From Ferroglobus placidus DSM 10642 (lineage in GTDB: Archaea; Halobacteriota; Archaeoglobi; Archaeoglobales; Archaeoglobaceae): a stretch of 32,000 bases of DNA. A program made the translations under genes and the position numbers. Each line of letters begins with the position of its first letter. Positions within the stretch are counted from its first letter, which is position 1. Shown here piece after piece: positions 1-27,372 of this stretch. The notes under the pieces were generated by a model. It searched no databases. It saw nothing but the letters and a program-made list of their open reading frames with translations, and had not been told where the DNA came from. The stretch spans positions 420,001 through 452,000 of the forward strand of contig NC_013849.1 of the NCBI RefSeq assembly GCF_000025505.1. The letters run 5' to 3'.

Positions 1-1511
1 CAAAAGCAAATCAGCCATCAAGCGCCTACGTGAGCGTATCTAATGGTGTCGTCTCGGCAACAAACCCCATGCCCGTCCCAATAAGCCTGGACAGAATACG
101 GCTCACCGTAAACGGAGAGCCCGTGCCAATACAGGATGCAAATCACAACGGGGTGTGGGAGCCTTTCGAGAAAATCACCTTCGACCTCAATTCAATGCTC
201 AAAAAAGATGTGGCTGTTGTAACGCTTTACATTGACGGGAAGGAGGTTTACAGATCTGTTTATACAAGGCCGACAGCCTTCCCGGAGGACGCACAGTTCC
301 CCGTTATCGATGTGAATGCATCTGCAGGGGGGAAGAAAGGCCTCACCCTGGACATCTCCATCGATGATGATGTTGCAGTTGCCCTTCAGGAAGTTCGGAT
401 AGGTGATGTTAAGGGTGAGAAACTGTACAGCCAGACCGACTTTCTGGAGGAGTACGTGAAGGGGCACAGAGGAGGCAAGTGCAAGCATGAACACGAGGGC
501 AAGAAGTTCAGGAAAGCTGTAGAAAAATACTGGAAAGAAATTGGAGAGAATGGAGAGAAGGGTGAAAAATACTGGAAAGAGGCAGAAGTGAGCGAGAAGT
601 TCTGGAAGGAGGTAAAAAAGTACTGGGATGAGATAGAGAAGGAGCACATTGGAGAGCACTACAAGGTTGAGAAGAAGATCGCTGTTCTGCTTGAAAAACT
701 CATGGGGGCTGTGAAGGAGGGTGGAAAGTCCAGCATACCCTGCGACCTCAAGCATGTCAGCAGCGAGGTCACAATCAACCAAAACCTCTCAGCCGATCAG
801 TACATCAGGATTGTTGCAAAGGATATTACCGGCAAAACCTCCTCAAAAATCCTCTGGCTGCGCGAGCTGGCACCGGAAGTCCACATCATACGTCCAGCAG
901 ACGGGCAGAAGTTCTGGAACAACGAGGACATATCCATTCTCGCCAGAGCTATTGGAGCTGATAGAGTGTACCTGTACGTTGACGGCCGTCTAATACTGAG
1001 TGAGAATGCCGGATCGAGCCCCTACGACTTCGGGAAGAATGTCAGGCTTGATGTCGGAACCCACACGATAAAGGCGAGGGCGGTGAACAATGTGGGGGCA
1101 GGGGAGGATTCTATCACGATAACCGTCATACCGGATAACCCGCCAACTGTCAGAATAACGCAGCCAAAGAATGGACAGACCTTCACAACAACCGGAAATG
1201 CTTACAAGTTAACTGTTACGGCAACAGCCTCAGACGACAGAGGTGTTAGAGAGGTCAGGTTCTACGACAATGGCAGATTCATCGGTAGCGATCTAAGTGC
1301 CCCATACCAGATTACAGCAACCCTTGGACTCGGAACCCACACAATAAAGGCTGTGGCAGTTGACACAGCAGGCCAGACAGCTTCTGACACCGTAATGATT
1401 ACCGTGAAGAAGGTTGGACAGCCTCCAAAGATAGTTCAGGCTTCTGTTCCTGCTATCGGGTGGAGTACCGACTTTAGTGGAGGTACTCCCGTTGTAGGAG
1501 GTGGTAGTTAA
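1..1511 (+). CDS. Surface/secreted protein with Ig-like repeat domains, 5'-partial
   Basis: Frame 3 is open from nt 3 to TAA at 1509-1511, so the gene probably starts upstream of the window; GTG at 30 is only the in-window option. Two Ig-like units carry the signature shared with the next gene (PPTVRITQP.NGQTFTT...ASDDRGVREVRFYDNGRFIGSD...GTHTIKAVAVDTAGQ). A Lys/Glu/Trp-rich insert with four YWKE/FWKE/YWDE repeats lies at about nt 480-700. The stop overlaps the next start (TAATG). Confidence 0.8.
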   Translation, partial: KANQPSSAYVSVSNGVVSATNPMPVPISLDRIRLTVNGEPVPIQDANHNGVWEPFEKITFDLNSMLKKDVAVVTLYIDGKEVYRSVYTRPTAFPEDAQFPVIDVNASAGGKKGLTLDISIDDDVAVALQEVRIGDVKGEKLYSQTDFLEEYVKGHRGGKCKHEHEGKKFRKAVEKYWKEIGENGEKGEKYWKEAEVSEKFWKEVKKYWDEIEKEHIGEHYKVEKKIAVLLEKLMGAVKEGGKSSIPCDLKHVSSEVTINQNLSADQYIRIVAKDITGKTSSKILWLRELAPEVHIIRPADGQKFWNNEDISILARAIGADRVYLYVDGRLILSENAGSSPYDFGKNVRLDVGTHTIKARAVNNVGAGEDSITITVIPDNPPTVRITQPKNGQTFTTTGNAYKLTVTATASDDRGVREVRFYDNGRFIGSDLSAPYQITATLGLGTHTIKAVAVDTAGQTASDTVMITVKKVGQPPKIVQASVPAIGWSTDFSGGTPVVGGGS

Positions 1512-4500
1512 TGAAGCGGGCTGTTTTAGTTTTACTGCTGGCAGCGCTCATGCTCATCGCCCAGCCAGTTAGTGCCTGGGGCGCCCCATCCATCTCACTC
1601 TCACCAACCGGAACTGTAAAGACAACGTCTGTAACATTCACAGCCTCTGCAAGCGATTCAGATGGCGTCAAGTCCATCGCTCTGTACGTTGACGGCCGTT
1701 TGTCGGCCTCGAAGACATACGGAAGCTGTGGATATGAAACGGTGAAGAAGTGCGGATACAAGACTGAGAAGGTCAGAAAATGCGGATGGAAGTATCAGAA
1801 GAGCTGTACACCTGTATTCAAGTGCTGGAGCGAGAGAGAGTGCAAACCAAAAGTGAGTTGCAAGCAGAGTTGGGTGTGTCCTGGTCTGGGATGGCTTGCA
1901 GGGAAATGCTTTGCGCATGCGCCATTGCCTCCATGGTACAGAGGGATCTGCAATGCCTGTGCCAGAGAACAATGTACAAAATCTGAAGATTGCCACAATG
2001 TGAGGAAATGTGGCTGGAAGCAGGAGTGCTACACCAGACCCACTTACAGGTGCTGGTATGAGAATGAGAAGAGGTACACCTGCTGGAATGAGAAAGAGTA
2101 CAGGTGCAACTATCCTCACTCAGCATCTCTCAGCAAAACTGTTAGCCTCAATCCAGGTTATCATTCCGTCAAGGTAGTGGCTGCAGATGCCAAGGGCCAC
2201 ACATCAGCCAGGACTTTCTCTGTAAGTGTGGTTGAGGTCAGACCACCAACAGTCTCCCTCTCACCGCCAGGAGGCACATTCACAACCTCAGGAAGCAGCA
2301 TAACCAGGACGTTCACAGCCACAGCAAAAGACGAGCGCGGTGTGAAATGGATTGCAATGTATTTGGATGGCAGAATGGTGGGATCGAGATACTGCTACTC
2401 ACCAACCTGCAGTCTGAGCAAAGCTCTCACGCTCACAGTTGGAAAGCACACAATCACGGTTAAGGCGAAGAAAGATAGCCTCTGGGGTGCCGAGGCGAGG
2501 AAGGACTGGACTGTTACCGTTATAAAGGATGTTAACGTCAACCTTGAATACGACGCCAAGGTGCCGTATTTCGCCGACAAGCTCCCGGTTAAGATTAACC
2601 TGGCCAATGTGCCTCTGAGAGCTGTAGCGAAGGTAACTGTCGATGGAGAGGAGGTTTTCAGCGGTACCTGCTCTGGCAGCTGCAACCTTGCCGTAAATGT
2701 ACCGCTCAAGGGCCTTGAGAACAGGGTTGGGGCAGCCAAGAGTTACGAGATGAAGATCACGGTGAATGCCGGTAGCATCACGATAACAAAGACCAGGAAG
2801 ATTGAGGTTAAGAGGGGCGAAAGCTTCCTGCCTGGCTCGGAGATCACAATCTACATCAAAGCTAAGAAGGGAATCGGGCGTGTTACAAAGTTTGAGCTCA
2901 CATACGGTGGCAAGAAGTACGATCCGCTGCAGTGGCCAAGCGAGCTGAACGAGTATGCGGACAAGATGGTGGAGGTGCCCTTCAAGATCAGGGTTACGAA
3001 GTCAGATGATGCAACAGTCACAATCTGCAACCTGTATGGCTGTGATGACAAGAAGATGAAGATATTTACAGGTAATGTGGTTGTAGATGCTCCTCCAGCC
3101 GTCAGAATAACGCAGCCAGCAGACGGCAGCACGTTCACAACAACCAGCAACAGCTACAGGTTAACTGTTAAGGCCTCAGCATCAGATGACAGAGGAGTTA
3201 GAGAGGTCAGGTTCTACGACAATGGCAGATTCATCGGCAGCGATCCATCACCGCCGTACGAAGTTACAGCAACCCTTGGACTCGGAACCCACACAATAAA
3301 GGCTGTGGCAGTTGATACTGCTGGGCAGACAAACTCTGACACCGTAATGATTACCGTGAAGAAGGTGGGACCAACACCTACCCCGACACCCACGCCAACT
3401 CCAACACCAGCAGATAACCCACCAACTGTTAAGATAACTTACCCACACGATGGAGATACCTTCACCACGAACAATCTCTTCAGGACGATCAAGGCGACAG
3501 CGAGTGATGACAGAGGAGTTAAAGAGGTTAGGTTCTACATCGATAATGCCTTTGCAGGGAGAGACAGCAGCCCGCCATATGAGATCCAGATACCATTCCA
3601 GCTCATAGGCCTATACGGTAAGCCCGGAAAGCACACAATAAAGGCTGTGGCAGTTGACACGGCAGGCCAGACCGGCGAGGACAGCATAACTGTTACTGTG
3701 GTGAAAGTAGAGCCTACACCTACACCAGATAACCCGCCAACAGTCAAGATAATCTATCCGCACGATGGAGACTCCTTTACGACCTCCAGCAGCACCTACA
3801 GGCTTACAATCCATGCAACCGCTTCAGATGACAAAGGTGTCAAAGAGGTCAGGTTCTACGTCGATGGAGATTACATAGGTGTGGGTGAACCATCGCATTT
3901 CCAGACAACTCCAACTCAGGCGATCACAACCAGCCTTGGAATCGGAACTCACACAATAAAGGCCGTGGCAGTTGACACAGCAGGCCAGACCGGCGAGGAC
4001 AGCATAACTGTTACTGTGAAGAAAGCCACTGACAACCCACCAACAGTCAGGATAACTGATCCACACGATGGATACACAATCACTCTGGCAAATAACGAGA
4101 ACAGCTACTTCCTGAAGGTCACGGCAACCGCTTCAGACGACAAGGGTCTCAAGTCGGTTACCTTCTACCTTGATGGAAAGTATCAGGAAGCTCACAGATG
4201 GAGCTGGCCCTATCCAACCACAAAGACTGTTAAAGCCTCGGTGCAGATCACCAGTACTGGAAAGCACACAATCAAAGCTGTTGCTGTTGACACAACAGGA
4301 CATACTGGCGAGGACAGCATAACAGTGTATGTTAAGAGGGCGGAAGAAACAGATAACCCGCCAACAGTCGAGATAACATATCCACGCAATGGAGACGTCT
4401 TCACGACCTCAGGATACACATACACTCTGACAGTAAGGGTGTCCGCTCATGACGACAAGGGTGTTAAGAAGCTCACATACTACCTTGACGGAACAGCCCT

Positions 4501-6508
4501 GTCGGATACATCCTTCTATCCGTACCCAACTGACAAATCTGACAGATATACAATGACTCTATTAACGGGAAGACACACGATCAGGGTTGTTGCTGTAGAC
4601 ACAGCAGGACAGACAGACTCAGATAGCGTAACCATTACCGTGAAGAAGGCCACTCCTACTCCGACACCGACACCAACTCCAACACCTACACCCACCGTCT
4701 GTGGAGACGGCAAACCTCCATCAGTCCAGATCACCAACCCACGCAATGGTGCGAAGATCTGTACTGATAACGGTGGAAGCACCGCCCGGATTACAATCAG
4801 GGCGCATGCTCAGGATGCTGATGGAATCATGAAGGTTGAGTTCTACAACAATGGAGTCAAGATCGGAGACGGCCAGCCAACAGCAGCAGGTATGTACGAG
4901 ATCACAACAACTCTTGGGGTTGGAACCCACACAATTAAGGCTGTTGCAAGGGACAACTGTGATCAGAGAAGCAGCGATCAGATTACAATAACTGTGGAGA
5001 GGTGCTACTGTGGAGACGGCAAACCTCCATCAGTCCAGATTCTCTATCCAAGTGACGGACAAACGTTTACCACAACTGGAAACAGCATCCGTGTAACAAT
5101 CAAAGTCGACGCGAAAGATCCAGACGGGATCTCTGATGTCAACATCTACGACAACGGAAATAAGCTTGATGCGTACAAATTCTATGACTCCTCCTACGGA
5201 TGGATCTACAAGGCTAGCTCGAACCTCGGTCCCGGAACCCACACAATTAAGGCTGTTGCAACGGACAACTGTGGACAGAGCAGCAGCGATCAGATTACTG
5301 TGAGTGTGCACGTGAGGAAGCCTATATACTACATCAAGCACCTGTTCTTCGACCTAGGGTCTGCCTTCTCCGACAAAGTTATCGTGAGAGAAGACAAGAT
5401 GTTCGTGAATAAGAATAAGGAGGACATCAGCAGAAATGCAGCATACAAGTACAGCGGCTGCATACCGCCGTATCTCTTCCGGGGCTCTACCCTGTACGGT
5501 GCATGGGTGTACGATCCGGATAATCCATATAAAAAGTACTACTTCGTCACTGCAGACAAGTTCACCACACTGGATAGCGGCCTTATAGGCGCGAAGGGCG
5601 GCTTCTGGGATGCGCTTTCCTATGGAGACGTGAAGCCAGGGTTCCGCTACAAGGACCTGAGATCTATCCTCAGCGTGATAAAGAGCCACCTGAAGCCAGG
5701 ATACAAGTGGGATGTTGAGGGATGGGGCGATGAACCGCAGGTTAAGCTCTGGGTAAATAAATTCTCAGTGCCGCCAATCCTTGTTATAGAGCCGATAGAC
5801 ACAATAGGTGTCGTCAAGGCGAGCTACAAGCTCGAAACAAGGTACGGGAAGACTTATGAAAAGACTTTCATTGACTCAAGCAAAGACGATGTAGGTTTGG
5901 TTGGAGTTGGTGCTCCGGGTACGAGAGGTGATCCGAAGTGCGGTTACACCGACGGTATCGATACAGATCTGATTATGGACGGAAAATGGCATCAGCTTGA
6001 TATAACCTTGGAGGACGTCGAGGGCAACGTCAAGACATACCACTATAAGGTCAGATGGGTTGGATCGTGGAGCAACCCAGTTGAGGTCAAGCAATCTACG
6101 GCGGGCGATACTACATCCAAGGTGTGTAGATATGTAACAGAAAACGTCAGAAAGTGCGGTTACAAGACTGAGGAGGTCTGTAGAAATGAGTTCAGGTGCT
6201 GGGATGAGAAGAAGTGTGGATGGCATAAAGAGTGCAGTAAGCCGTGGTGGTGCTTCTGGTGTTCAGAAAAATGCGAGTGGAAGTACAGCTGTAAGACTGA
6301 GAGAAAGTGTGGCTGGAAGCCAGTGTGCCGGAGCGAGAGGAAATACAAGTGCTGGTACGAGCCTGTGAGGAAATACACCTGCTGGACTGAGCCTGTGGAG
6401 AGGTACAAGTGCTGGAATGAAAGGAAGTGTGGCTGGAAGCCAGTGTGCCGGAGCGAGAGAAAATACACCTGCTGGACTGAGCCTGTGAAGAGGTACGTGT
6501 GCAAATAA
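1511..6508 (+). CDS. Giant secreted surface protein (1665 aa) with an Ig-like domain array and two Cys/Trp-rich repeat modules
   Basis: Uninterrupted 4998-nt ORF. N-terminal signal peptide MKRAVLVLLLAALMLIAQPVSAWG. At least nine units carry the G(T/K/R)HTI(K/R/T) ... D(S/T)(I/V)T(I/V)(T/S)V Ig-like signature. PT linkers (PTPTPTPTPTP) lie at about nt 3370-3410 and 4655-4695. Cys/Trp-rich modules lie at about nt 1718-2125 and 6116-6505. A globular region of roughly 300 aa lies at about nt 5340-6110. No C-terminal TM anchor. Confidence 0.9.
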   Translation: MKRAVLVLLLAALMLIAQPVSAWGAPSISLSPTGTVKTTSVTFTASASDSDGVKSIALYVDGRLSASKTYGSCGYETVKKCGYKTEKVRKCGWKYQKSCTPVFKCWSERECKPKVSCKQSWVCPGLGWLAGKCFAHAPLPPWYRGICNACAREQCTKSEDCHNVRKCGWKQECYTRPTYRCWYENEKRYTCWNEKEYRCNYPHSASLSKTVSLNPGYHSVKVVAADAKGHTSARTFSVSVVEVRPPTVSLSPPGGTFTTSGSSITRTFTATAKDERGVKWIAMYLDGRMVGSRYCYSPTCSLSKALTLTVGKHTITVKAKKDSLWGAEARKDWTVTVIKDVNVNLEYDAKVPYFADKLPVKINLANVPLRAVAKVTVDGEEVFSGTCSGSCNLAVNVPLKGLENRVGAAKSYEMKITVNAGSITITKTRKIEVKRGESFLPGSEITIYIKAKKGIGRVTKFELTYGGKKYDPLQWPSELNEYADKMVEVPFKIRVTKSDDATVTICNLYGCDDKKMKIFTGNVVVDAPPAVRITQPADGSTFTTTSNSYRLTVKASASDDRGVREVRFYDNGRFIGSDPSPPYEVTATLGLGTHTIKAVAVDTAGQTNSDTVMITVKKVGPTPTPTPTPTPTPADNPPTVKITYPHDGDTFTTNNLFRTIKATASDDRGVKEVRFYIDNAFAGRDSSPPYEIQIPFQLIGLYGKPGKHTIKAVAVDTAGQTGEDSITVTVVKVEPTPTPDNPPTVKIIYPHDGDSFTTSSSTYRLTIHATASDDKGVKEVRFYVDGDYIGVGEPSHFQTTPTQAITTSLGIGTHTIKAVAVDTAGQTGEDSITVTVKKATDNPPTVRITDPHDGYTITLANNENSYFLKVTATASDDKGLKSVTFYLDGKYQEAHRWSWPYPTTKTVKASVQITSTGKHTIKAVAVDTTGHTGEDSITVYVKRAEETDNPPTVEITYPRNGDVFTTSGYTYTLTVRVSAHDDKGVKKLTYYLDGTALSDTSFYPYPTDKSDRYTMTLLTGRHTIRVVAVDTAGQTDSDSVTITVKKATPTPTPTPTPTPTPTVCGDGKPPSVQITNPRNGAKICTDNGGSTARITIRAHAQDADGIMKVEFYNNGVKIGDGQPTAAGMYEITTTLGVGTHTIKAVARDNCDQRSSDQITITVERCYCGDGKPPSVQILYPSDGQTFTTTGNSIRVTIKVDAKDPDGISDVNIYDNGNKLDAYKFYDSSYGWIYKASSNLGPGTHTIKAVATDNCGQSSSDQITVSVHVRKPIYYIKHLFFDLGSAFSDKVIVREDKMFVNKNKEDISRNAAYKYSGCIPPYLFRGSTLYGAWVYDPDNPYKKYYFVTADKFTTLDSGLIGAKGGFWDALSYGDVKPGFRYKDLRSILSVIKSHLKPGYKWDVEGWGDEPQVKLWVNKFSVPPILVIEPIDTIGVVKASYKLETRYGKTYEKTFIDSSKDDVGLVGVGAPGTRGDPKCGYTDGIDTDLIMDGKWHQLDITLEDVEGNVKTYHYKVRWVGSWSNPVEVKQSTAGDTTSKVCRYVTENVRKCGYKTEEVCRNEFRCWDEKKCGWHKECSKPWWCFWCSEKCEWKYSCKTERKCGWKPVCRSERKYKCWYEPVRKYTCWTEPVERYKCWNERKCGWKPVCRSERKYTCWTEPVKRYVCK

Positions 6509-10953: not shown

Positions 10954-11070
10954 CTTACTCACCTCTTTATTCACTACTCTTTTACTAAATGCATATAGTA
11001 CTAAGAAATATATATAGTTTTCGGTAGCAGGATTACTAAACCTAAACACTTTGTTCTCAGAAATCTAACA

Positions 11071-11346
11071 ATGGCACTAATCTCTGACGCCACTGTGATT
11101 GTGGAGGTGGGAGAAAGTAGTGGTGTTGTTCCTCAGGGATGGGAAGCTCTCAGACTTGGCAGACCCCTGTTTTTCTGGAAGTTACTGGCTGAAAAAGACA
11201 TCAGGTGGGTAAAAGAGATGATGAAGTACGGTGCATGTGTTTTACGGAACATTAATGACTTAAAACGGGCTATGAGAGAACTGGTACCACCGCCTACAGA
11301 TGAGCCATTGAAGTTGTCTCTGGTGGGCCTTAGTGACTTTATATGA
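11071..11346 (+). pseudogene. DprA/Smf-like Rossmann domain, C-terminal fragment only (truncated gene or stand-alone remnant)
   Basis: The 91-aa product ISDATVIVEVGESSGVV...EALRLGRPLFF...MMKYGACVLRNINDL aligns by eye with the distal part of DprA (..lVvEA..kSGsl.Ta..AleqGR.vfa....LI..GA.lv....Di). The N-terminal two thirds of a normal DprA are missing. Confidence 0.5.
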
Positions 11347-11448
11347 GATTAAGCAACCTTCTTATAGTCCTTCAGACGGTTCTAAAGAGAGTAAATATGT
11401 GAAAGAGATTTTGAGAAATCAAAGAGTTTAGCGGTAGATCTCAGTGAG

Positions 11449-11760
11449 GTGTGCTCCAGCCTCAAGTTACCCCCTACCTCTCTCCCAAACCACATCTCAC
11501 CCATGCCTCGACCCTATGGTTACTCCCTACCGTGCTACTACTTAACACCCTACCATCTCTCTCAAACAACCTCTCCCAGACTACTGTGCTACTCTCTACT
11601 TCCCTCTCTCTCACCTCTCAACTCCTCAACTACCCCTACCGTGCTACTCCTTAACACCCTACCGTGCTACTCTCTATCACCCTACCATCCCTCCCAAACC
11701 AACCCTCCAACATCCAAACCACACCTACCACACACCACCACACCGCATGCAATACCGCCA
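11449..11760 (+). repeat. G-poor C/T/A tract with CCCTACC(G/A)TGCTACT-type repeats, copy 1
   Basis: About 310 nt with very few G on the plus strand. It shares the 19-nt core ACCCTCCAACATCCAAACC (11702-11720) with the tract at 21720-21875 (21793-21811). Confidence 0.7.
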
Positions 11761-12514
11761 GATAACCGGTAGTATGATCTCCGAGGAGAGAGCTTTAATC
11801 CGCGAAAAAATCCCGCAAAATCGTTCTTTTTTCAATCTCCCAGGAGATGCCTCTAAATCAGGAATGGAGCGACGACTCGACTTCCAGCAAACGCCAGCGG
11901 TTTTCTTTTAAATATTTTTTGCTTCAACTCATAGCTATTTAGCCGAATATTTGCCAAGTCCCGGGTATTTTATTCTTTACTGGAGAAGTGGGTTAATATT
12001 TATCTGCAGACAGAACGAAGGCCTCTCCTCCGATTTCGGGTTCTGACAATTACCAATCTGAGCACTCTCATGCCTTGTTTTGAAAATCTGGGGAATGGGA
12101 AAGCGTAAATCAGAGATTACTCCCGCTCAGATTGGACATAAACTTCTCAAATAAAATTAATTTTCGAAATCCGCTGTATAGTGTTTATTTTTGATTTAAA
12201 CAACAGAAATAGAACCAAATGTAAGAAGTGCTAAGGCGGAAAATTTACCACGGGATCGGAGTAATATGAGATAGTCTGCTTAAGATAAGATTTTTATTCC
12301 TTGATTTAAAAAACTCGTAGTGTTTCTTAGCTGTCTCTGATTTGTGTAAAAAGGAATATAATTGCTCTTCCAAAAAAAGAAGAAATTATAAAGCTTTAAT
12401 AAACGCCTCTCGTAAATTATCTCAGATGAAGATAATTTCTCTCCTCGCTCCTTTGATGCGCAAATCATGCTAACGATATATCCCTCATTTTCACGTGCAG
12501 GCTGGGTGACATTC

Positions 12515-12935
12515 ACATCAACATCAACCTTTCAACCTCAACCTCACCTCCATCAACCCCTGCATCAACCGCTGCATCAACCTGCGTCAACCGCTGCATC
12601 AACCTCAGCATCAACCGCTTCATCAACCTGCTGCTGCATCAACCTGCGTCAACCTCAGCATCAACCTCTGCTGCTTCAACCTCTGCGTCAACCGCTACTG
12701 CTGCATCAACCTCTGCTGCGTCAACCGCTATTGCTGCGTCAACCGCTGCATCAACCTCTGCTGCGTCAACCTTTGCATCAACCTTTGCATCAACCTGCGT
12801 CAACCGCTACAGCATCAACCTTGCATCAACCGCTGCCTCACGCACTGAGGTTTCTGCGGCAGCAGGCATATGCAGCAGAGCAGCAGCAAGCACCAGCAAC
12901 TGCAACTTCAGCAGCAGAGCAGCAGCAGTAAAGCG
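12515..12935. repeat. Minisatellite of GC(A/G)TCAACC units with variable (G/T)CTGCT spacers, ending in a CAG-rich block
   Basis: About 27 copies of (C/G)(A/G)TCAACC at irregular 9-18 nt spacing over 12515-12840. A GCAGCA-rich run follows at 12850-12935. The 154-aa ORF here translates only to QPLHQPL-type low complexity. Confidence 0.85.
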
Positions 12936-12939
12936 TCAG

Positions 12940-13095
12940 CGGATTAGCTATTCTGGATTGGGCGTTAGCTTTTTTGGATGGTTAGATTTTTGGAGAGGGC
13001 ATTAGCTTTTTGGATGGTTTTTGGCTGCTCTCTTTTCTGGATGGTTTTTGGATTGGGCGTTAGCTTTTTTGGAGAGGGCGTTAGCAACCTTGCCA
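12940..13095. repeat. T/G-rich repeat block (GGGCGTTAGCTTTTTTGGA / TTTTTGGATGGTT units)
   Basis: GGCGTTAGCTTTTTTGGA-type units occur three or four times, interleaved with TTTTGGATGG. The flavour matches the T/G-rich intergenic cassettes at 23.2-29.5 kb. Confidence 0.6.
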
Positions 13096-13169
13096 CTTGC
13101 TCTCAAGTGTTCTCGGTTTTAGCAGGTTTTAGCAGGTTCAGGTGCAATGCGCTGGTGCGTTTGCCGGGA

Positions 13170-13290
13170 ACAGGGGGTCGTCGGGGGGAAGCGTCAGGAG
13201 CCAGTCAGGGACTCGTCAGGGAGAGGAGGCTCGTCAGCTCGTAGGGATCAGGGGCCAGAGACCAAGGATCAGGAGTCAGGGAGCCCGTCG
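13170..13290. repeat. G-rich degenerate repeat block (CGTCAGGGA / ATCAGGRG units)
   Basis: gcgtcaggag, ccagtcaggga, ctcgtcaggga, gctcgtcagc, gatcagggg, gatcaggag and tcagggag recur at about 10-14 nt intervals. Confidence 0.5.
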
Positions 13291-13357
13291 GGAAGAGGCT
13301 TGCAACACATTAGCTTACACAAGCAGACAGAGATTCCTGTTTATCTGGCAGACTCAC

Positions 13358-13440
13358 TTTTACCAGGGGTTAATTTACCCGGGGTAAATCAAAAGATTTA
13401 CCGGGGGTTAATTAAGATTTTTACCAGGGGTTAATCAAAG
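13358..13440 (+). repeat. GGGGTTAAT iteron cluster 1 (3 good and 1 degenerate copy)
   Basis: Copies read taccaGGGGTTAATttaccc, GGGGTAAATcaaaag, taccGGGGGTTAATtaag and taccaGGGGTTAATcaaag. All are in the same orientation. Confidence 0.8.
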
Positions 13441-13771
13441 AACGTTTCACACCAAAGCAGTCTTCGAATAAACCTGGTCTGCAAGAGATGCACGGAGGTA
13501 CAGCACATTCCTCTACCTGAAAAGCAAGTATAGGTTTAGTACCAGTCGGGAAGCTGGGGCGTTTAGCAGGGTCATCGAGAATTTGGGAGAGCTTGCCGGG
13601 AAGAAAAATCATGACCGCTCACAGCCGCACAGCGCTCCACATCACTCGTGCTCGAAGATCATATCGTTAAGTAACGTTAAGTATTATAATTTAACACTAA
13701 CTAGGATGTCCTAAACTTAATTAAAATACAACCAGGCCCGGCGGATTGCTTCAAGCAACCACTCTATTGCC

Positions 13772-13870
13772 CGGATTTGATGTGAAGCCCTTTAACTTAA
13801 CCCATTGAGAACTTCTCTCAGGACTGTAGAGGAGAAAGGATTTATTATTTAAGCAGAAAGAGAGACATAT
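13772..13870 (+). promoter_or_regulatory. Leader-like region of the left repeat array (conserved boxes plus TATA-like element)
   Basis: Box 1 CGGATTTGATGTGAAGCCCTTTAACTTAA (13772-13800) and box 2 TATTTAAGCAGAAAGAGAGACATATG (13846-13871) recur in inverted orientation at 21065-21093 and about 21030-21055. TTTATTATTTAAG looks like an archaeal TATA element pointing into the array. Confidence 0.45.
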
Positions 13871-14189
13871 GTGGGGGAGGAGGGAGAAGACTATGATACG
13901 AGTCCGCCCACGGGTGCTGTGGCATCCATTCCAATCCCCCGGAGAGTGAGGACGGTGATACGAGTCCACTAAAGGTAGCCCTCGCAGTAGATTTGATAAA
14001 ACAATCGTTGCAGAGGGAGATGAGGATGATGATACGAGTCCACTCCTGCATAAAGAACATTGGCCTTTGTAAGTTCAGGCCCCGTTGCAAGAGTGAGGAC
14101 GATGATATGAGTCCACTTGATCAGCTCCCCAAAGTCAGCTTTTTCCGGCGGTTGCAAAGGGGCCGGGGGGATCAGAGATGATGACGGGC
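13871..14189 (+). CRISPR. Degenerate CRISPR-like mini-array (5 repeats of 33-39 nt, 4 unique spacers of 29-40 nt), no cas genes nearby
   Basis: Repeats lie at about 13871-13907, 13937-13969, 14007-14043, 14084-14116 and 14151-14189. The consensus is roughly GTTGCAA(A)GAG(T)GAGGACGATGATACGAGTCCAC. The 3' ends are spaced 62, 74, 73 and 73 nt apart. The core GATGATA(C/T)GAGTCCAC is conserved, while the 5' purine-rich part varies in sequence and length, which is atypical for an active array. Confidence 0.4.
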
Positions 14190-14659
14190 ATTAGTATAGT
14201 TTCAGCAGAGTCAAAATGTAGTTAAATGGGCCCAGGCAAAGCTGAGAGGGTACATAAGGGACAGGATGGAGAGCTACCACAGGCACCTCACCCACATCTC
14301 CCCCTACACCTACGACCCCGAGGACAAAATCAGAGCTCATAGATCTTCTTACCGTATGCGAGCTTTGTTGAGAGAGGAGTAGTTGAAGAGATGTGCTGGG
14401 ATTTTGAAGAGGTGAGGGAGAGCAGGGGTTTGCTGGAGGCCCTCCAGGACGTGTGCTCCCCGGCTGACGGGGAAGACAGCCCCCAAAAAGAATGTTGCAG
14501 ACGATTTTGCTACTCAATGAGAATTGAACTTTGATTGCAGAAATAAAGCATCGTAAAGTTTTGTAAAGATCCAAGGAAGATTTGAAACGCTTTTTTGGAG
14601 GAACGGGGGAAAGTGTCTTTATATTTTCTGAGATAGTAGATTTGTTGAGGTGATGAAGG

Positions 14660-16021
14660 ATGGGTGCGAAATTGAGTGTGTTTGTGCTGGTGCTGGTGGC
14701 ACTGGGTATGGTAGTGTTGCCTGCAGTGTCAGCGAAGCCAATGGGCAATGGATACATGAATCCGGTTCCAGCCTCTGACAGCAGTACAGAGAATAATACC
14801 AATGTAGCCGTTACCACCACGGTTCCATCTACCAGTGAAAATAATACCGCAACTGTAACTGTCACTCAGAATTTGGTCAACCCCTCTCCCAACCCCTCCC
14901 CCAATCCGAATCCGATCCGCCAACAGGGACCGCATCCCTGGATACAGCATCACCAGAAGCCACATCTCTGGAAGCACAAGCATCCCTGGATACCGCATCT
15001 CTGGAAGCACAGAAACCAGAACCAAAATCAAACTCAGCAGGCCCTGGCCCACAAAATGAAAGGGGAGGAGAAGTGGGAAAACGCTAAAGAGAGATTTGAA
15101 AAGGCGAGAGAATGGTTTAACGAAACCAGAAAAAAGGTTGAAGAGGCCAGAAAACAGGCAAGAGAGAAAAGATTTGAGGCCTGGAAGAAGCATCTCACAG
15201 CCTGGGTTGAAGTGGCAAAGAAATGGGTTGAAAGGGTTGAACTCAGAATTCAGAACCTGAAACTGAACAATGAAAGCAAGGAAAGGTTGATGAGCAAGCT
15301 TCAGGAGGTTAAAGACAGTTTAAATAGTATAGAGAGTGAAATCAATGCCTCGCAGAACTACACTGAGCTGAGAGAGAAGGCAAGGGAAATCAGAGAGTTG
15401 TGGAAAGAGTTAAGGCAGGAGATGAGACAGGCTGTGCAGGAATATGCGATTGATAAGTACAGCGAAATTCTTGAAAGGTTAAAGCAGGTTAGAGACAGGC
15501 TTCAGGATGCAGGTGTTGATGTTAGCAATCTAAATGAGAAGATTGAGGAGATAGGGAGTGCTGTGGACGATTTAGAAAATTACATAGGAACAACTGAATT
15601 TCCGGAGAAGGTGAGAGAAGTCAACCAGCTATTCAGAGAAGCCTTTAAGACTGTTAAAGAACTTGTCAGAGAGGCGAAACCGGTGCCGAAACATGGTTTT
15701 GTCTATGCCCGCGTTAATGGTAGCTTTGAGCTGAGCGGGAACTTCAGTTCGGTGCAGATAAAGGTAAAGAATGGCAGTGTATCAATTCCCGAGAATGTGG
15801 TGGTAAAGAGGGTTAACACTTCAGGAGTTGAAATGATTGTTGCCAGAGGTAGCTTTACAGCCAGCGGAAATGGAGAGTTCAGAATACTCGCTCACGGTAG
15901 CGGTGAACTCAGTCTGAGCGGCGAGGGTTATTACAGAGTCAAAAAATCACCTGCTGAGCCTATGACAGACGAGATCGAGTTAGGCAATGAAACTGTAACT
16001 GTAACATTCGGCCAGAGCTGA
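14660..16021 (+). CDS. Secreted protein: signal peptide, PN/PS linker, His/Trp/Lys repeats, long Trp-containing coiled coil, C-terminal beta domain
   Basis: ATG at 14660 lies 7 nt after GAGGTGA. A TATA-like CTTTATATTTT lies at about 14617-14627. Signal peptide MGAKLSVFVLVLVALGMVVLPAVSA. Linker NPSPNPSPNPNP. Repeat HPWIQHHQKPHLWKHKHPWIPHLWKH. A charged helical region spans about aa 140-330. Confidence 0.85.
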   Translation: MGAKLSVFVLVLVALGMVVLPAVSAKPMGNGYMNPVPASDSSTENNTNVAVTTTVPSTSENNTATVTVTQNLVNPSPNPSPNPNPIRQQGPHPWIQHHQKPHLWKHKHPWIPHLWKHRNQNQNQTQQALAHKMKGEEKWENAKERFEKAREWFNETRKKVEEARKQAREKRFEAWKKHLTAWVEVAKKWVERVELRIQNLKLNNESKERLMSKLQEVKDSLNSIESEINASQNYTELREKAREIRELWKELRQEMRQAVQEYAIDKYSEILERLKQVRDRLQDAGVDVSNLNEKIEEIGSAVDDLENYIGTTEFPEKVREVNQLFREAFKTVKELVREAKPVPKHGFVYARVNGSFELSGNFSSVQIKVKNGSVSIPENVVVKRVNTSGVEMIVARGSFTASGNGEFRILAHGSGELSLSGEGYYRVKKSPAEPMTDEIELGNETVTVTFGQS

Positions 16022-16077
16022 ACATCTGGCAGCTGAAGATCTGAAAGCAGGCTGGTAGGGAGGGGGGGCTGAACAGT

Positions 16078-16362
16078 ATGAAGAAAAAATACATACTGGT
16101 GCTCCTGATAGCCATTGCAGCGATCTTTGCAGGCTGTCAGGGGAAGAGGGCTGAAAAGGGAGCTTCAACAACCACAACCACAACCACAGCCACACAGGCA
16201 CCCTCACAGGCATCTACACCTGCAATCACTCCTGCAATCACACCCACAGCCACAACACCGCAAACTCAGCAAGAAATCAATGAGAGCCTTGAGGATCTGC
16301 AGGAGATTGAGCAGTTAATACAGGATCTCAAGAGTCTCGATAATGTTCAGCTGAACGTTTGA
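16078..16362 (+). CDS. Small lipoprotein-like secreted protein with Thr/Pro-rich linker
   Basis: MKKKYILVLLIAIAAIFAGC has a lipobox-like FAGC. It is followed by TTTTTTTATQAPSQASTPAITPAITPTATTP and an acidic helical tail. T-runs follow the stop (tgattattttttagcttttttg). Confidence 0.75.
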   Translation: MKKKYILVLLIAIAAIFAGCQGKRAEKGASTTTTTTTATQAPSQASTPAITPAITPTATTPQTQQEINESLEDLQEIEQLIQDLKSLDNVQLNV

Positions 16363-16504
16363 TTATTTTTTAGCTTTTTTGCCGTTGCCGTTGCGACCAA
16401 CCATCAAATTAACCAATTTTGCTTTTCAGAATTTGGAAGTATAGGCTCTTATCATCGCCTCTACTCCTCGCAGCTTCTTTGTTGCGGGTTGCAGGGGCTT
16501 GTCG

Positions 16505-16692
16505 GAGGTTAATCAAAAAATGAACCCGGGGTTAATTAAGATTTTGAACCCGGGGTTAATTAACCCAGTTAATTTACCGGGGGTTAATCAAGGATAATGA
16601 ACCGGGGGTTAATTAACCGGGGGTTAATCAAAAAAATGAACCCGGGGTTAATTTACCAGAGTCAATTAGAGATAATTTACCGGGGGTTACTT
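16505..16692 (+). repeat. GGGGTTAAT iteron cluster 2 (about 7 good and 3 degenerate copies)
   Basis: GG(A/G)GGTTAAT occurs at 16507, 16528, 16552, 16579, 16604, 16619 and 16644. Degenerate copies are AGTTAAT (16567), GTCAATT (about 16661) and GGGGGTTAC (16682). Spacing alternates between about 13-15 and 23-25 nt. The extended unit is GATAAT(G/T)(A/T)ACC(G)GGGGTTAAT(T/C)AA. Confidence 0.85.
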
Positions 16693-16789
16693 AAAGGAGG
16701 AGAATGTGTTACAGAAGTTGAATTGTGGAGAATAAGAAATTCGAAAGACCAAAAGACAGATATTCTACAAAATCTCAAATTAAACAAGC

Positions 16790-22224: not shown

Positions 22225-22308
22225 GGGGGCGGATCCCGGACTCCTTCTCCTGTGCAATTTACAGGGGAAGGAGGGCCGGGTTTCCGGGTTCGAATCCCGG
22301 CCGCCCCC
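22225..22308 (+). ncRNA. D-arm-less tRNA-like element, copy B (acceptor/T-arm minihelix plus long hairpin); also a candidate att site
   Basis: An 8-bp acceptor pairs GGGGGCGG (22225-32) with CCGCCCCC (22301-08). The T-arm CCGGG-TTCGAAT-CCCGG has a canonical T-loop. In place of the D and anticodon arms there is a CCCGG/CCGGG stem that carries a 13-bp hairpin, CTCCTTCTCCTGT-GCAATTT-ACAGGGGAAGGAG, with one G-U pair on the plus strand. It ends 21 nt before the first gene of the downstream element. Confidence 0.5.
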
Positions 22309-22329
22309 GGAAAAAAAGGAGTGACTACT

Positions 22330-27063: not shown

Positions 27064-27372
27064 ATGTTTAGAGTTAAGGAGTCTGAATCCCGGACTGGAA
27101 GAAAAATAAAGGTTCTGGAGTTCGAGCTTGAGGGCCCGATCAGCCCTCAAGACCTTCCCGAAATTGAGAAGATGCTCCCTGAAATTAGAGGTGCACACGT
27201 GCTCGTGATATCTGGCAGGGGTCCGATATGGCTATACTGCGTTATCTTGCACAAGTATATGCACATGTTCCCGGCCATTGGAGTGTATGATCCCAAACTT
27301 GAGGGAGCGGTTATTGTCGTTTCACACACAAGATATGCGGATGTGGGAACAGTAATCCCGATAGATTCCTAA
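27064..27372 (+). CDS. csx3: Csx3/Crn3-like protein (candidate cyclic-oligoadenylate ring nuclease)
   Basis: The 102-aa product contains HVLVISGRGPIWLYCVILHKYMHMFPAIGVYDPKLEGAVIVVSH. As I remember it, this matches the Csx3 family signature (..ISGRGPIWL...H....H.....VYDP(K/R)L...VV.SH) and the size of Archaeoglobus Csx3. The His-to-Asp spacing of 9 residues (H67/D76) equals my recollection of the catalytic H60/D69 pair. Not verified by search. Confidence 0.65.
   Translation: MFRVKESESRTGRKIKVLEFELEGPISPQDLPEIEKMLPEIRGAHVLVISGRGPIWLYCVILHKYMHMFPAIGVYDPKLEGAVIVVSHTRYADVGTVIPIDS

Follow-up and report, generated by a model that had tools for sequence, protein, structure and literature searches.

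Several described systems resemble stretches of repeat-dense, non-coding DNA. They include coding-derived minisatellites and pseudogenes decaying in islands, orphan or degenerate arrays of clustered regularly interspaced short palindromic repeats (CRISPR) together with the mini-arrays CreA, CreR and crlRNA, the iteron origins and centromeres of plasmids and phages (lambda ori with its O protein, R1 parC and the pNOB8 AspA site), and the operators of archaeal winged helix-turn-helix (wHTH) proteins of the Phr/HSR1 type. The lambda O protein acts on dyad-symmetric iterons, AspA and ParR act on centromeres, the HSR1 motif of Archaeoglobus fulgidus reads CTAAC-N5-GTTAG, and archaeal class 1 CRISPR repeats usually end at the 3' side in ...ATTGAAAG/C. 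Here we set beside these systems an interval from Ferroglobus placidus DSM 10642, positions 11347-14659 of a 32-kb window (the whole stretch of DNA that was analysed), which an earlier note on the sequence had described as a gene desert assembled from unrelated repeat families. The chromosome of this archaeon spans 2,196,266 bp, with 44.1% GC, a coding density of 90.9% and 6 CRISPR loci (PMC3236036); the GC content of the window is 49%.

With moderate confidence, we read the interval as a non-coding junction within an island, in which formerly coding DNA inflated by slippage, an array of operator-like sites and a degenerate leader-array module have come to lie side by side, and not as one device. 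The window is part of a horizontally acquired, heavily rearranged island of defence and mobile genes, whose content includes a ShosA fragment, csx3, bpMoxR, DUF6744, giant Big_7 Ig-domain proteins and many open reading frames (ORFs) that belong to no family. The interval would be tolerated because such an island would be free of selection for compactness. The kinds of sequence found in it are known, and these particular instances have not been described previously. A fallback offered in the earlier note, a graveyard of mobile-element ends, fits the truncated ShosA gene at the border, the mosaic neighbours, the minus-strand-like left half and the degenerate array. The interval carries about seven distinct repeat blocks, and those that the note listed were recovered by Tandem Repeats Finder (TRF), repeat finding and composition, except for a set of isolated iteron-like words and a GTCAGGGA block. 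To call the blocks unrelated repeat families is fair; to call the interval assembled from them overstates their coherence, and they are not all confined to the gap, as iterons recur at 16524-16691 and 17688-17858, a leader with its array at 20870-21110 (-) and the CT tract at 21720-21870.

The absence of any convincing coding sequence from 11347-14659 was borne out by negative codon scores, a lack of family matches and the singleton status of the ORFs. Briefly, we listed all ORFs of at least 40 aa and scored them by codon-usage log-odds trained on the window's own genes. These genes score +0.07 to +0.51, and every ORF of that length in the interval is negative except one, a 54-aa (VDA)n ORF at 12639-12803 (-). 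The main ORFs of the interval gave zero matches in Pfam or NCBIfam, and those found in a collection of 15 billion proteins are singletons that gene callers predicted automatically in assemblies of this strain. Searched in full with HMMER, the 95-aa ORF retrieved itself, two low-complexity sequences and nothing else; a pooled query with 18 interval ORFs returned nothing, yet it also missed ORFs known to be in that database. Neither Rfam, at gathering and E-value thresholds, nor ARAGORN, with and without introns, found an RNA family or tRNA in the interval, and BLAST of 11000-18500 gave no plasmid match and one irrelevant low-complexity phage match. The non-coding span comes to about 3.25 kb because the next gene, which encodes 453 aa, has its promoter (TTTATATT at 14618) and its ribosome-binding site at approximately 14618-14659.

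We infer that the left half of the interval is decayed, low-complexity coding DNA of the minus strand that was expanded by slippage. The TCAACC minisatellite, which had been noticed earlier and was found at 12518-12840, consists mostly of units of 12, 15 and 18 nt, with frame-breaking units of 10, 11 and 16 nt interspersed. In six-frame translation its minus strand reads (V-D-A-x)n in local codon usage, with about five frameshifts. The codon score of this VDA frame is +0.78, compared with -0.74 for the plus ORF, and the plus-strand ORF of 154 aa is open only because the minisatellite unit has no stop in any plus frame. One frame-breaking unit, TGCGTCAACC, is present in three identical copies, indicating that duplication went on after the frame was lost. 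Base composition points the same way. On the plus strand, the purine share is 36-40% at 11.4-11.8 kb and at 12.4-12.8 kb, compared with 56-59% at 13.2-14.8 kb. Most genes in the window have coding strands with 56-64% purine, so that the left part is composed like minus-strand coding DNA and the right part like plus-strand coding DNA. A minus-strand gene block meets a plus-strand gene block at the interval; the composition of the left part resembles that of the genes to its left, and the composition of the right part that of the genes to its right. The 11.4-13.3 kb region would be former coding or transcribed DNA that decayed and was then inflated by replication slippage. As in coding-derived minisatellites and pseudogenes that decay in islands, most unit lengths are divisible by 3, codon usage in one frame is coding-like, the strand composition resembles that of coding strands and the interval is bordered by truncated genes. 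Unlike in the described minisatellites, no intact parent gene was found for this putative coding DNA.

The operator-like sites begin with four copies of ACCNGGGGTTAAT at 13362-13435, where iterons had been reported. This motif has 18 copies in the window against 0.16 expected, all of them on the plus strand and in three clusters, the second and third of which bracket a small cassette made up of a 182-aa membrane-protein gene and an 83-aa wHTH gene. Each site is a quasi-palindrome of the form AAT-TKWACC-N-GGGGTTAAT. The consensus of the 18 aligned copies is (G)ATAAT-T-K-W-ACC-N-GGGG-TTAAT, in which ACC, GGGG and TTAAT are near-invariant. Inverting the right half, GGTTAATT, gives an imperfect match to the left half, AATTWACC, so each iteron unit is a quasi-palindrome of 19-21 bp; spacings are 15, 23-28 and 39 nt. 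Quasi-palindromes of this size are the usual site shape for a dimeric HTH protein, which suggests that such a protein binds here; the iterons are real and are probably bound by protein. A dimeric (winged-)HTH protein encoded by the island would then bind them cooperatively. The iteron core, TAAC-C-N-GGG-GTTA, appears to share the architecture of half-sites and spacer with the Phr/HSR1-type operators of archaeal wHTH proteins (TAAC-N5-GTTA), but those occur once or twice per promoter whereas the iterons form 4-7-fold arrays, and none of the genes identified in the window is of the Phr family. Three homology breakpoints lie at distances of 50-320 nt from the clusters, which thus mark the places where unrelated modules join. 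Viral contigs and 241 million metagenome records yielded neither the iteron pair nor a lookalike. A quasi-palindromic site in 18 copies offers a handle for identifying a new archaeal DNA-binding protein. A perfect 22-nt palindrome that differs from the iteron motif, TTGTGATTGATATCAATCACAA at 17543-17564, lies directly upstream of the 83-aa wHTH ORF and is probably that gene's own operator.

The third component is a leader followed by a five-unit CRISPR-like array, which had been proposed before and was confirmed at 13766-14189. The array units all carry ...GAYGATGATACGAGTCCAC, mostly start with GTTGCA and have a variable purine-rich middle. The first four units of array A start 62, 74 and 73 nt apart, their spacers of about 25-40 nt are mutually dissimilar, and degeneracy is greatest in the repeat at the leader-distal end. 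A second leader and array (B), in inverted orientation, faces the first across the gene block at 14.2-20.8 kb. In the second conserved block of leader A, a TATA-like TATTTAAG stands about 20 nt ahead of the first repeat, and the conserved leader, with this archaeal-type promoter, would drive the degenerate CRISPR-type array. Arrays A and B thus share with working CRISPR loci regular spacing, unique spacers of similar length and a one-sided leader with a predicted promoter, but their repeats are not near-identical: only ...GATGATACGAGTCCAC is conserved, the 3' 16-20 nt, and TRF did not report the array. Written as GTTGCA...GATACGAGTCCAC for comparison with canonical repeats, the array repeat seems to lack the 3' end usual in archaeal class 1 systems. 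Adjacent cas genes are likewise missing, as Pfam on 30 ORFs and PADLOC on 20 found csx3 only and no core cas gene in the 32 kb; csx3 is separated from array A by 13 kb and from array B by 6 kb.

We infer from these features that both arrays are orphan, decaying CRISPR-type remnants. They resemble known orphan or degenerate CRISPRs and mini-arrays (CreA, CreR, crlRNA) in having 33-39-nt repeats, starts 62-74 nt apart, unique spacers of similar size, a conserved promoter-bearing leader on one side with the worst repeat at the far end, a csx3 gene nearby, and spacers partially similar to a nearby element. They differ in that their repeats are about 64% alike, core cas genes are lacking and two inverted paralogues are present. 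The array repeat has no significant RNA fold and was absent from 241 million metagenome records and from viral contigs. When viral contigs were scanned for patterns of the array repeat, leader, iteron triplet and hairpin, nothing or unrelated sequences came back, a literature search found nothing for the repeat sequence or the accessions of the sequencing runs, and a review of the CRISPRs of Archaea names F. placidus only for a variant type III module. A reading of the array as C/D-box small RNAs was rejected: a perfect RUGAUGA occurs in repeats A3 and A5 only, no D box was seen and the fold is not significant. Either the paired arrays capture a CRISPR in the course of decay, or they point to regulation by CRISPR-derived RNAs at a distance from cas genes.

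The first spacers of both arrays relate to a hairpin-rich element beside array B. Its plus strand contains five hairpins, each capped by a C(UCCG)G tetraloop. No Rfam family matched the element, which may represent a novel structured RNA or a hairpin-repeat element from a hyperthermophile. Over 43 nt, spacer A1 together with the first part of unit A2 shows 81% similarity to 21397-21357 (-); spacer B1 resembles 21338-21305 (-), and the two matches have the same orientation. The scores of the extended A1 spacer and of spacer B1 beat 500 of 500 shuffles. The leader-proximal spacers would derive from an element with about 80% similarity to the hairpin-rich sequence.

Assembly breaks give an indirect sign of a further copy of one array repeat elsewhere in the genome. 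Four assemblies all break at 14036, which is 29 nt past 14007, the first base of repeat A3. The rule that a unitig ends at the start of an exact repeat plus 29 was verified on the 37-nt duplicate shared by clusters 2 and 3 (16580-16616 = 17786-17822), where contigs end at 16609 and 17815 and one starts at 16587. The breaks at 14036 therefore imply a further exact copy, of at least 31 nt from the start of repeat A3, outside the window. Another contig starts at 14294, implying that the sequence ending at 14323 is also exactly repeated elsewhere in the F. placidus genome.

Table 1. Features of the interval (11347-14659) and related features elsewhere in the 32-kb window
Feature	Position	Strand	Details
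ShosA (DprA-like) 3' fragment, 91 aa, left border	11071-11346	+	PADLOC ShosA and phrog_9185 matches
C-rich, G-poor tract	11449-11772		six CCCTACC words; 23-nt sub-repeat, TRF period 23, score 86
AT-rich, repeat-free segment	11780-12500		GC 37.6%; its ORFs negative in codon score
TCAACC minisatellite	12515-12845	-	TRF periods 12/27/45, scores up to 186
GCA/CAG trinucleotide-rich block	12850-12935		TRF period 3, 19.3 copies, 70% matches
20-21-nt unit TTTTTGGAGAGGGCGTTAGC, about 6 copies, then GGTTTTAGCA x2.4	12940-13138	+	TRF 12943-13014, 13045-13085, 13115-13138
Purine-rich stretch, G 44%, three exact GTCAGGGA words	13170-13290	+	weak repeat
Iteron cluster 1, four sites, spacing 15/23/23 nt	13358-13441	+	84-88% identity to parts of clusters 2 and 3
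Leader A	13766-13871	+	two blocks common to leader B: 35 nt at 91%, 26 nt at 92%
Array A, five degenerate 33-39-nt repeats	13871-14189	+	consensus GTTGCA-purine-rich-GAYGATGATACGAGTCCAC
Spacer, repeat-free, purine-rich	14190-14659	+	3' end is promoter and ribosome-binding site of 453-aa gene
Iteron cluster 2, 7 sites, upstream of 182-aa membrane-protein gene	16503-16700	+	outside interval
83-aa wHTH gene	17288-17539	-	adjoins cluster 3
Iteron cluster 3, 7 sites, between 184-aa gene and 83-aa wHTH gene	17673-17865	+	outside interval
Leader B and two-repeat array B	20870-21110	-	inverted paralogue of leader/array A; start spacing 72 nt
GC-rich, hairpin-rich element, 240 nt, beside array B	21290-21530		fold z -6.3 (+), -5.2 (-)

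Several observations weigh against reading the interval as a junction of decayed and unconnected parts. Decay is read from composition and frame structure and not from an intact homologue. The array repeats, at 64% mean column identity over seven aligned units, are far more divergent than those of any working CRISPR, and the leader is better conserved than the repeats, a hint that the promoter of the leaders may still be under selection. The iterons, in three places and one orientation, look more like function than debris. Finally, a GAN triplet periodicity in the variable half of the array repeats would encode an acidic (E/D)n-T-S-P-L motif. This periodicity belongs to an alternative that we consider quite unlikely, in which the array and other blocks are, or are what is left of, the frameshift-broken coding sequence of acidic or low-complexity repeat proteins, with nothing CRISPR-derived about them. 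In one frame, all six of six repeat units encode (E/D)-rich-D-[TMI]-S-P-[LP], with synonymous-looking changes (GAC/GAT, GAA/GAG, CTA/CTC/CTT); array B holds the acidic frame open for 73 codons, and the minus frame of the minisatellite is coding-like as well. However, the peptide of the acidic frame matches no protein among 5.8 billion at E up to 1, the spacings between units break the frame at every unit of array A, and the frame in array B has no start codon. The minority bases number 5, 10 and 11 at codon positions 1, 2 and 3 in a hand tally, showing no concentration at third positions, and the array ORFs score negative in codon usage. That the interval instead holds overlooked real genes, or is an assembly artefact of a repeat-rich region, is very improbable and largely refuted already. 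Automatic gene callers do place small ORFs of 54, 78, 95, 47 and 32 aa here, and one assembly from 454 reads fuses two ORFs into one of 151 aa. These ORFs are the singletons described above, without family matches and with negative codon scores, and the 151-aa ORF hinges on a G6 to G5 homopolymer difference seen only in the SRR019238 assembly. Artefact can be set aside because four independent read sets give the same sequence: the assemblies of SRR3923786, SRR019237, SRR019238 and SRR071437 are identical to the window wherever they overlap it, except for single-base homopolymer lengths in those of SRR019237 and SRR019238.

The earlier suggestion that the interval contains an origin, a partition site or recombination sites was not supported, and there is no positive support for an origin or partition site in it. 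Orc1/Cdc6, Rep, ParA or integrase families were matched by 0 of the 30 ORFs scanned across the window, and helicase, ParM and TubZ families by none of them either. Archaeal oriC has an adjacent orc1/cdc6 gene and inverted origin recognition box (ORB) elements flanking an AT-rich region; here all 18 iterons are direct repeats, which leaves no inverted arrangement of the ORB type flanking an unwinding region, and repeat finding detected no long inverted repeat bracketing 11780-12500. A cumulative GC-skew minimum at about 13 kb was discounted as evidence for an origin, since it coincides with the switch from minus to plus gene orientation. Among the ORFs scanned, no ParA, ParM or TubZ operon was found linked to the iterons, as it would be at a plasmid partition centromere. 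Of the features of iteron origins, direct repeats are present, while the adjacent candidates are generic wHTH proteins only, whose initiator matches are confined to the wHTH and no better than those to regulators. A broader version, in which the iteron clusters and the AT-rich segment are the origin or centromere of an integrated plasmid-like element bound by the 478-aa or the 83-aa wHTH protein, is in our judgement unlikely. Like the lambda origin, R1 parC and the pNOB8 AspA site, the island has clusters of 4-7 dyad-symmetric sites of about 20 bp, 18 highly conserved sites in all, mostly 23-25 bp apart and in a single orientation, with small wHTH genes adjoining clusters 2 and 3; the GC content of the island is also foreign. 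The 478-aa protein (18595-20031) weakly matches the O-like replication initiators of PHROG (E 7e-7), and Foldseek matches to its single-sequence model include the centromere-binding AspA and TubR among the best, along with MarR-type folds (E ~5e-3 to 3e-2). These matches are generic, however: the wHTH scores equally for MarR, ArsR and Csa3/CasR, no Foldseek match reaches E 1e-3, and the model has a predicted local distance difference test (pLDDT) score of 65. In contrast to the known systems, no gene for an initiator, helicase or partition NTPase was found, the three clusters extend over 4.5 kb with unrelated genes between them, and related iterons are absent from the metagenome and viral collections scanned. 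In addition, the spacing is irregular, with 15- and 39-nt intervals out of helical phase, the AT-rich segment is 860 nt away from cluster 1, and the 83-aa wHTH gene owns a palindrome different from the iterons. A repeat-dense gene desert in a compact archaeal genome can stem from decay, slippage and module shuffling within a defence island, and need not contain an origin or another dedicated cis-acting machine. For the arrays, the functional alternative is that the two are CRISPR-derived regulatory RNAs of the CreA/CreR/crlRNA kind, whose first spacers pair imperfectly with the hairpin-rich RNA or DNA for Cas silencing or sensing. We give it a slim chance. Degenerate repeats stand around short spacers behind a conserved promoter, both first spacers share about 80% similarity with neighbouring segments of the structured element, in an orientation that would render transcripts of the arrays antisense to its more stable plus-strand RNA, csx3 is present in the window, and degenerate mini-CRISPRs that complement their targets only in part form an established class (PMC8501985; see also PMC9458426 and bioRxiv 10.1101/2023.03.03.530964). 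Yet known CreTA/CreR modules sit in or beside cas operons and depend on the operon's effector (PMC8501985), with a seed that pairs with the target promoter next to a protospacer adjacent motif (PAM). The 32 kb hold no core cas gene, the spacer matches (21305-21398) fall within the structured element rather than at any recognisable promoter, and inspection of their flanks revealed no PAM-like motif common to them. Arrays of five and two units also differ from the one-spacer design of CreA. A combined functional reading, in which the paired cas-distal arrays supply guide RNAs antisense to the 240-nt hairpin RNA in a type III genome with a local csx3 and, independently, the 18 sites form a centromere, origin or silencer array of an uncharacterised integrated element, also strikes us as quite unlikely.

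The remaining blocks of the left half vary in how distinct they are. The G-poor CT tract was confirmed at 11449-11772, with G at 6.7% and C at 46.5%. The word CCCTACC occurs 15 times in the window against 3.5 expected, and 12 of these copies, all on the plus strand, lie in two C-rich tracts. The second tract, at 21720-21870, has a G content of 2.6% and the same orientation, and is 72% identical over 65 nt to the first. This second tract stands directly upstream of a tRNA-like stretch, and its G-rich complement, with many GGG and GGGG runs, could form a G-quadruplex. In the adjoining AT-rich segment, the low GC content described earlier was confirmed, and the isolated iteron-like words proved to be at chance level: GGGTTAAT at 11990 is the single copy outside the clusters, where about one is expected per 32 kb, and ATTTACC, besides its copy at 12243, occurs at several other, unrelated places across the window.

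Beyond the minisatellite, the CAG-rich block is present as a GCA/CAG run at 12872-12928. TRF likewise recovered the proposed block of 20-21-nt T-run units, at 12943-13085, and the TTTTTGGAGAGGGCGTTAGC units include six runs of at least 5 T on the plus strand; the GGTTTTAGCA repeat that follows at 13115-13138 was absent from the earlier list. The GTCAGGGA block did not hold up, consisting of just three exact copies in 80 nt and not being called by TRF. With one mismatch allowed, GTCAGGGA has 45 matches compared with 34.6 expected, so it is barely enriched.

The borders and neighbours of the interval are truncated or mosaic. The fragment at the left border matches positions 223-294 of the 303 in the PADLOC ShosA model (E 7e-14) and positions 190-255 of the 257 in phrog_9185; the gene is truncated at its 5' end, and approximately 220 N-terminal codons are gone. 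To the right, a 603-bp module with the 182-aa membrane-protein gene (16752-17354) is 96.7% identical to positions 1467-2069 of a locus (L015) from run ERR15087786. The homology ends abruptly at both sides, and these sharp ends are evidence of recent module exchange. The copy in ERR15087786 adjoins a tRNA 3' end and a Fic gene, and has no iterons. Close relatives are present in this run and in ERR15087784. The 184-aa gene (17944-18498, -) matches a 142-aa family to residue 140 only and runs on into new sequence with a 44-aa extension. This family is represented in Geoglobus, Acidianus and metagenomes of hot environments. The metagenome members are followed by a PaREP1 gene, and a search within the window found no remnant of such a partner.

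Elsewhere in the window, the csx3 gene (27064-27372, +; Pfam E 1.7e-30) is followed by DUF6744 and bpMoxR genes. An adjacent pair of Big_7 Ig-like genes (493 and 1665 aa, many domains each) occupies 30-6508 (+), and their DNA is extensively repeated both within and between the two genes; positions 1140-1419 and 3092-3371, for instance, are 84% identical over 280 nt. Three tRNA-like sequences, none of them called by ARAGORN or Rfam, lie near array B and the hairpin-rich element. The one at 22230-22313 (+) has a perfect acceptor stem and a GGTTCGAATCC T-arm, with a single long hairpin between them; a second, 1.4 kb away at 20827-20873 (+), is a decayed copy of its 3' half with 83% similarity, and the third, at 21880-21990 (+), looks like a broken tRNA. 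These sequences may be intron-containing or atypical tRNAs, or remnants of att-type integration.

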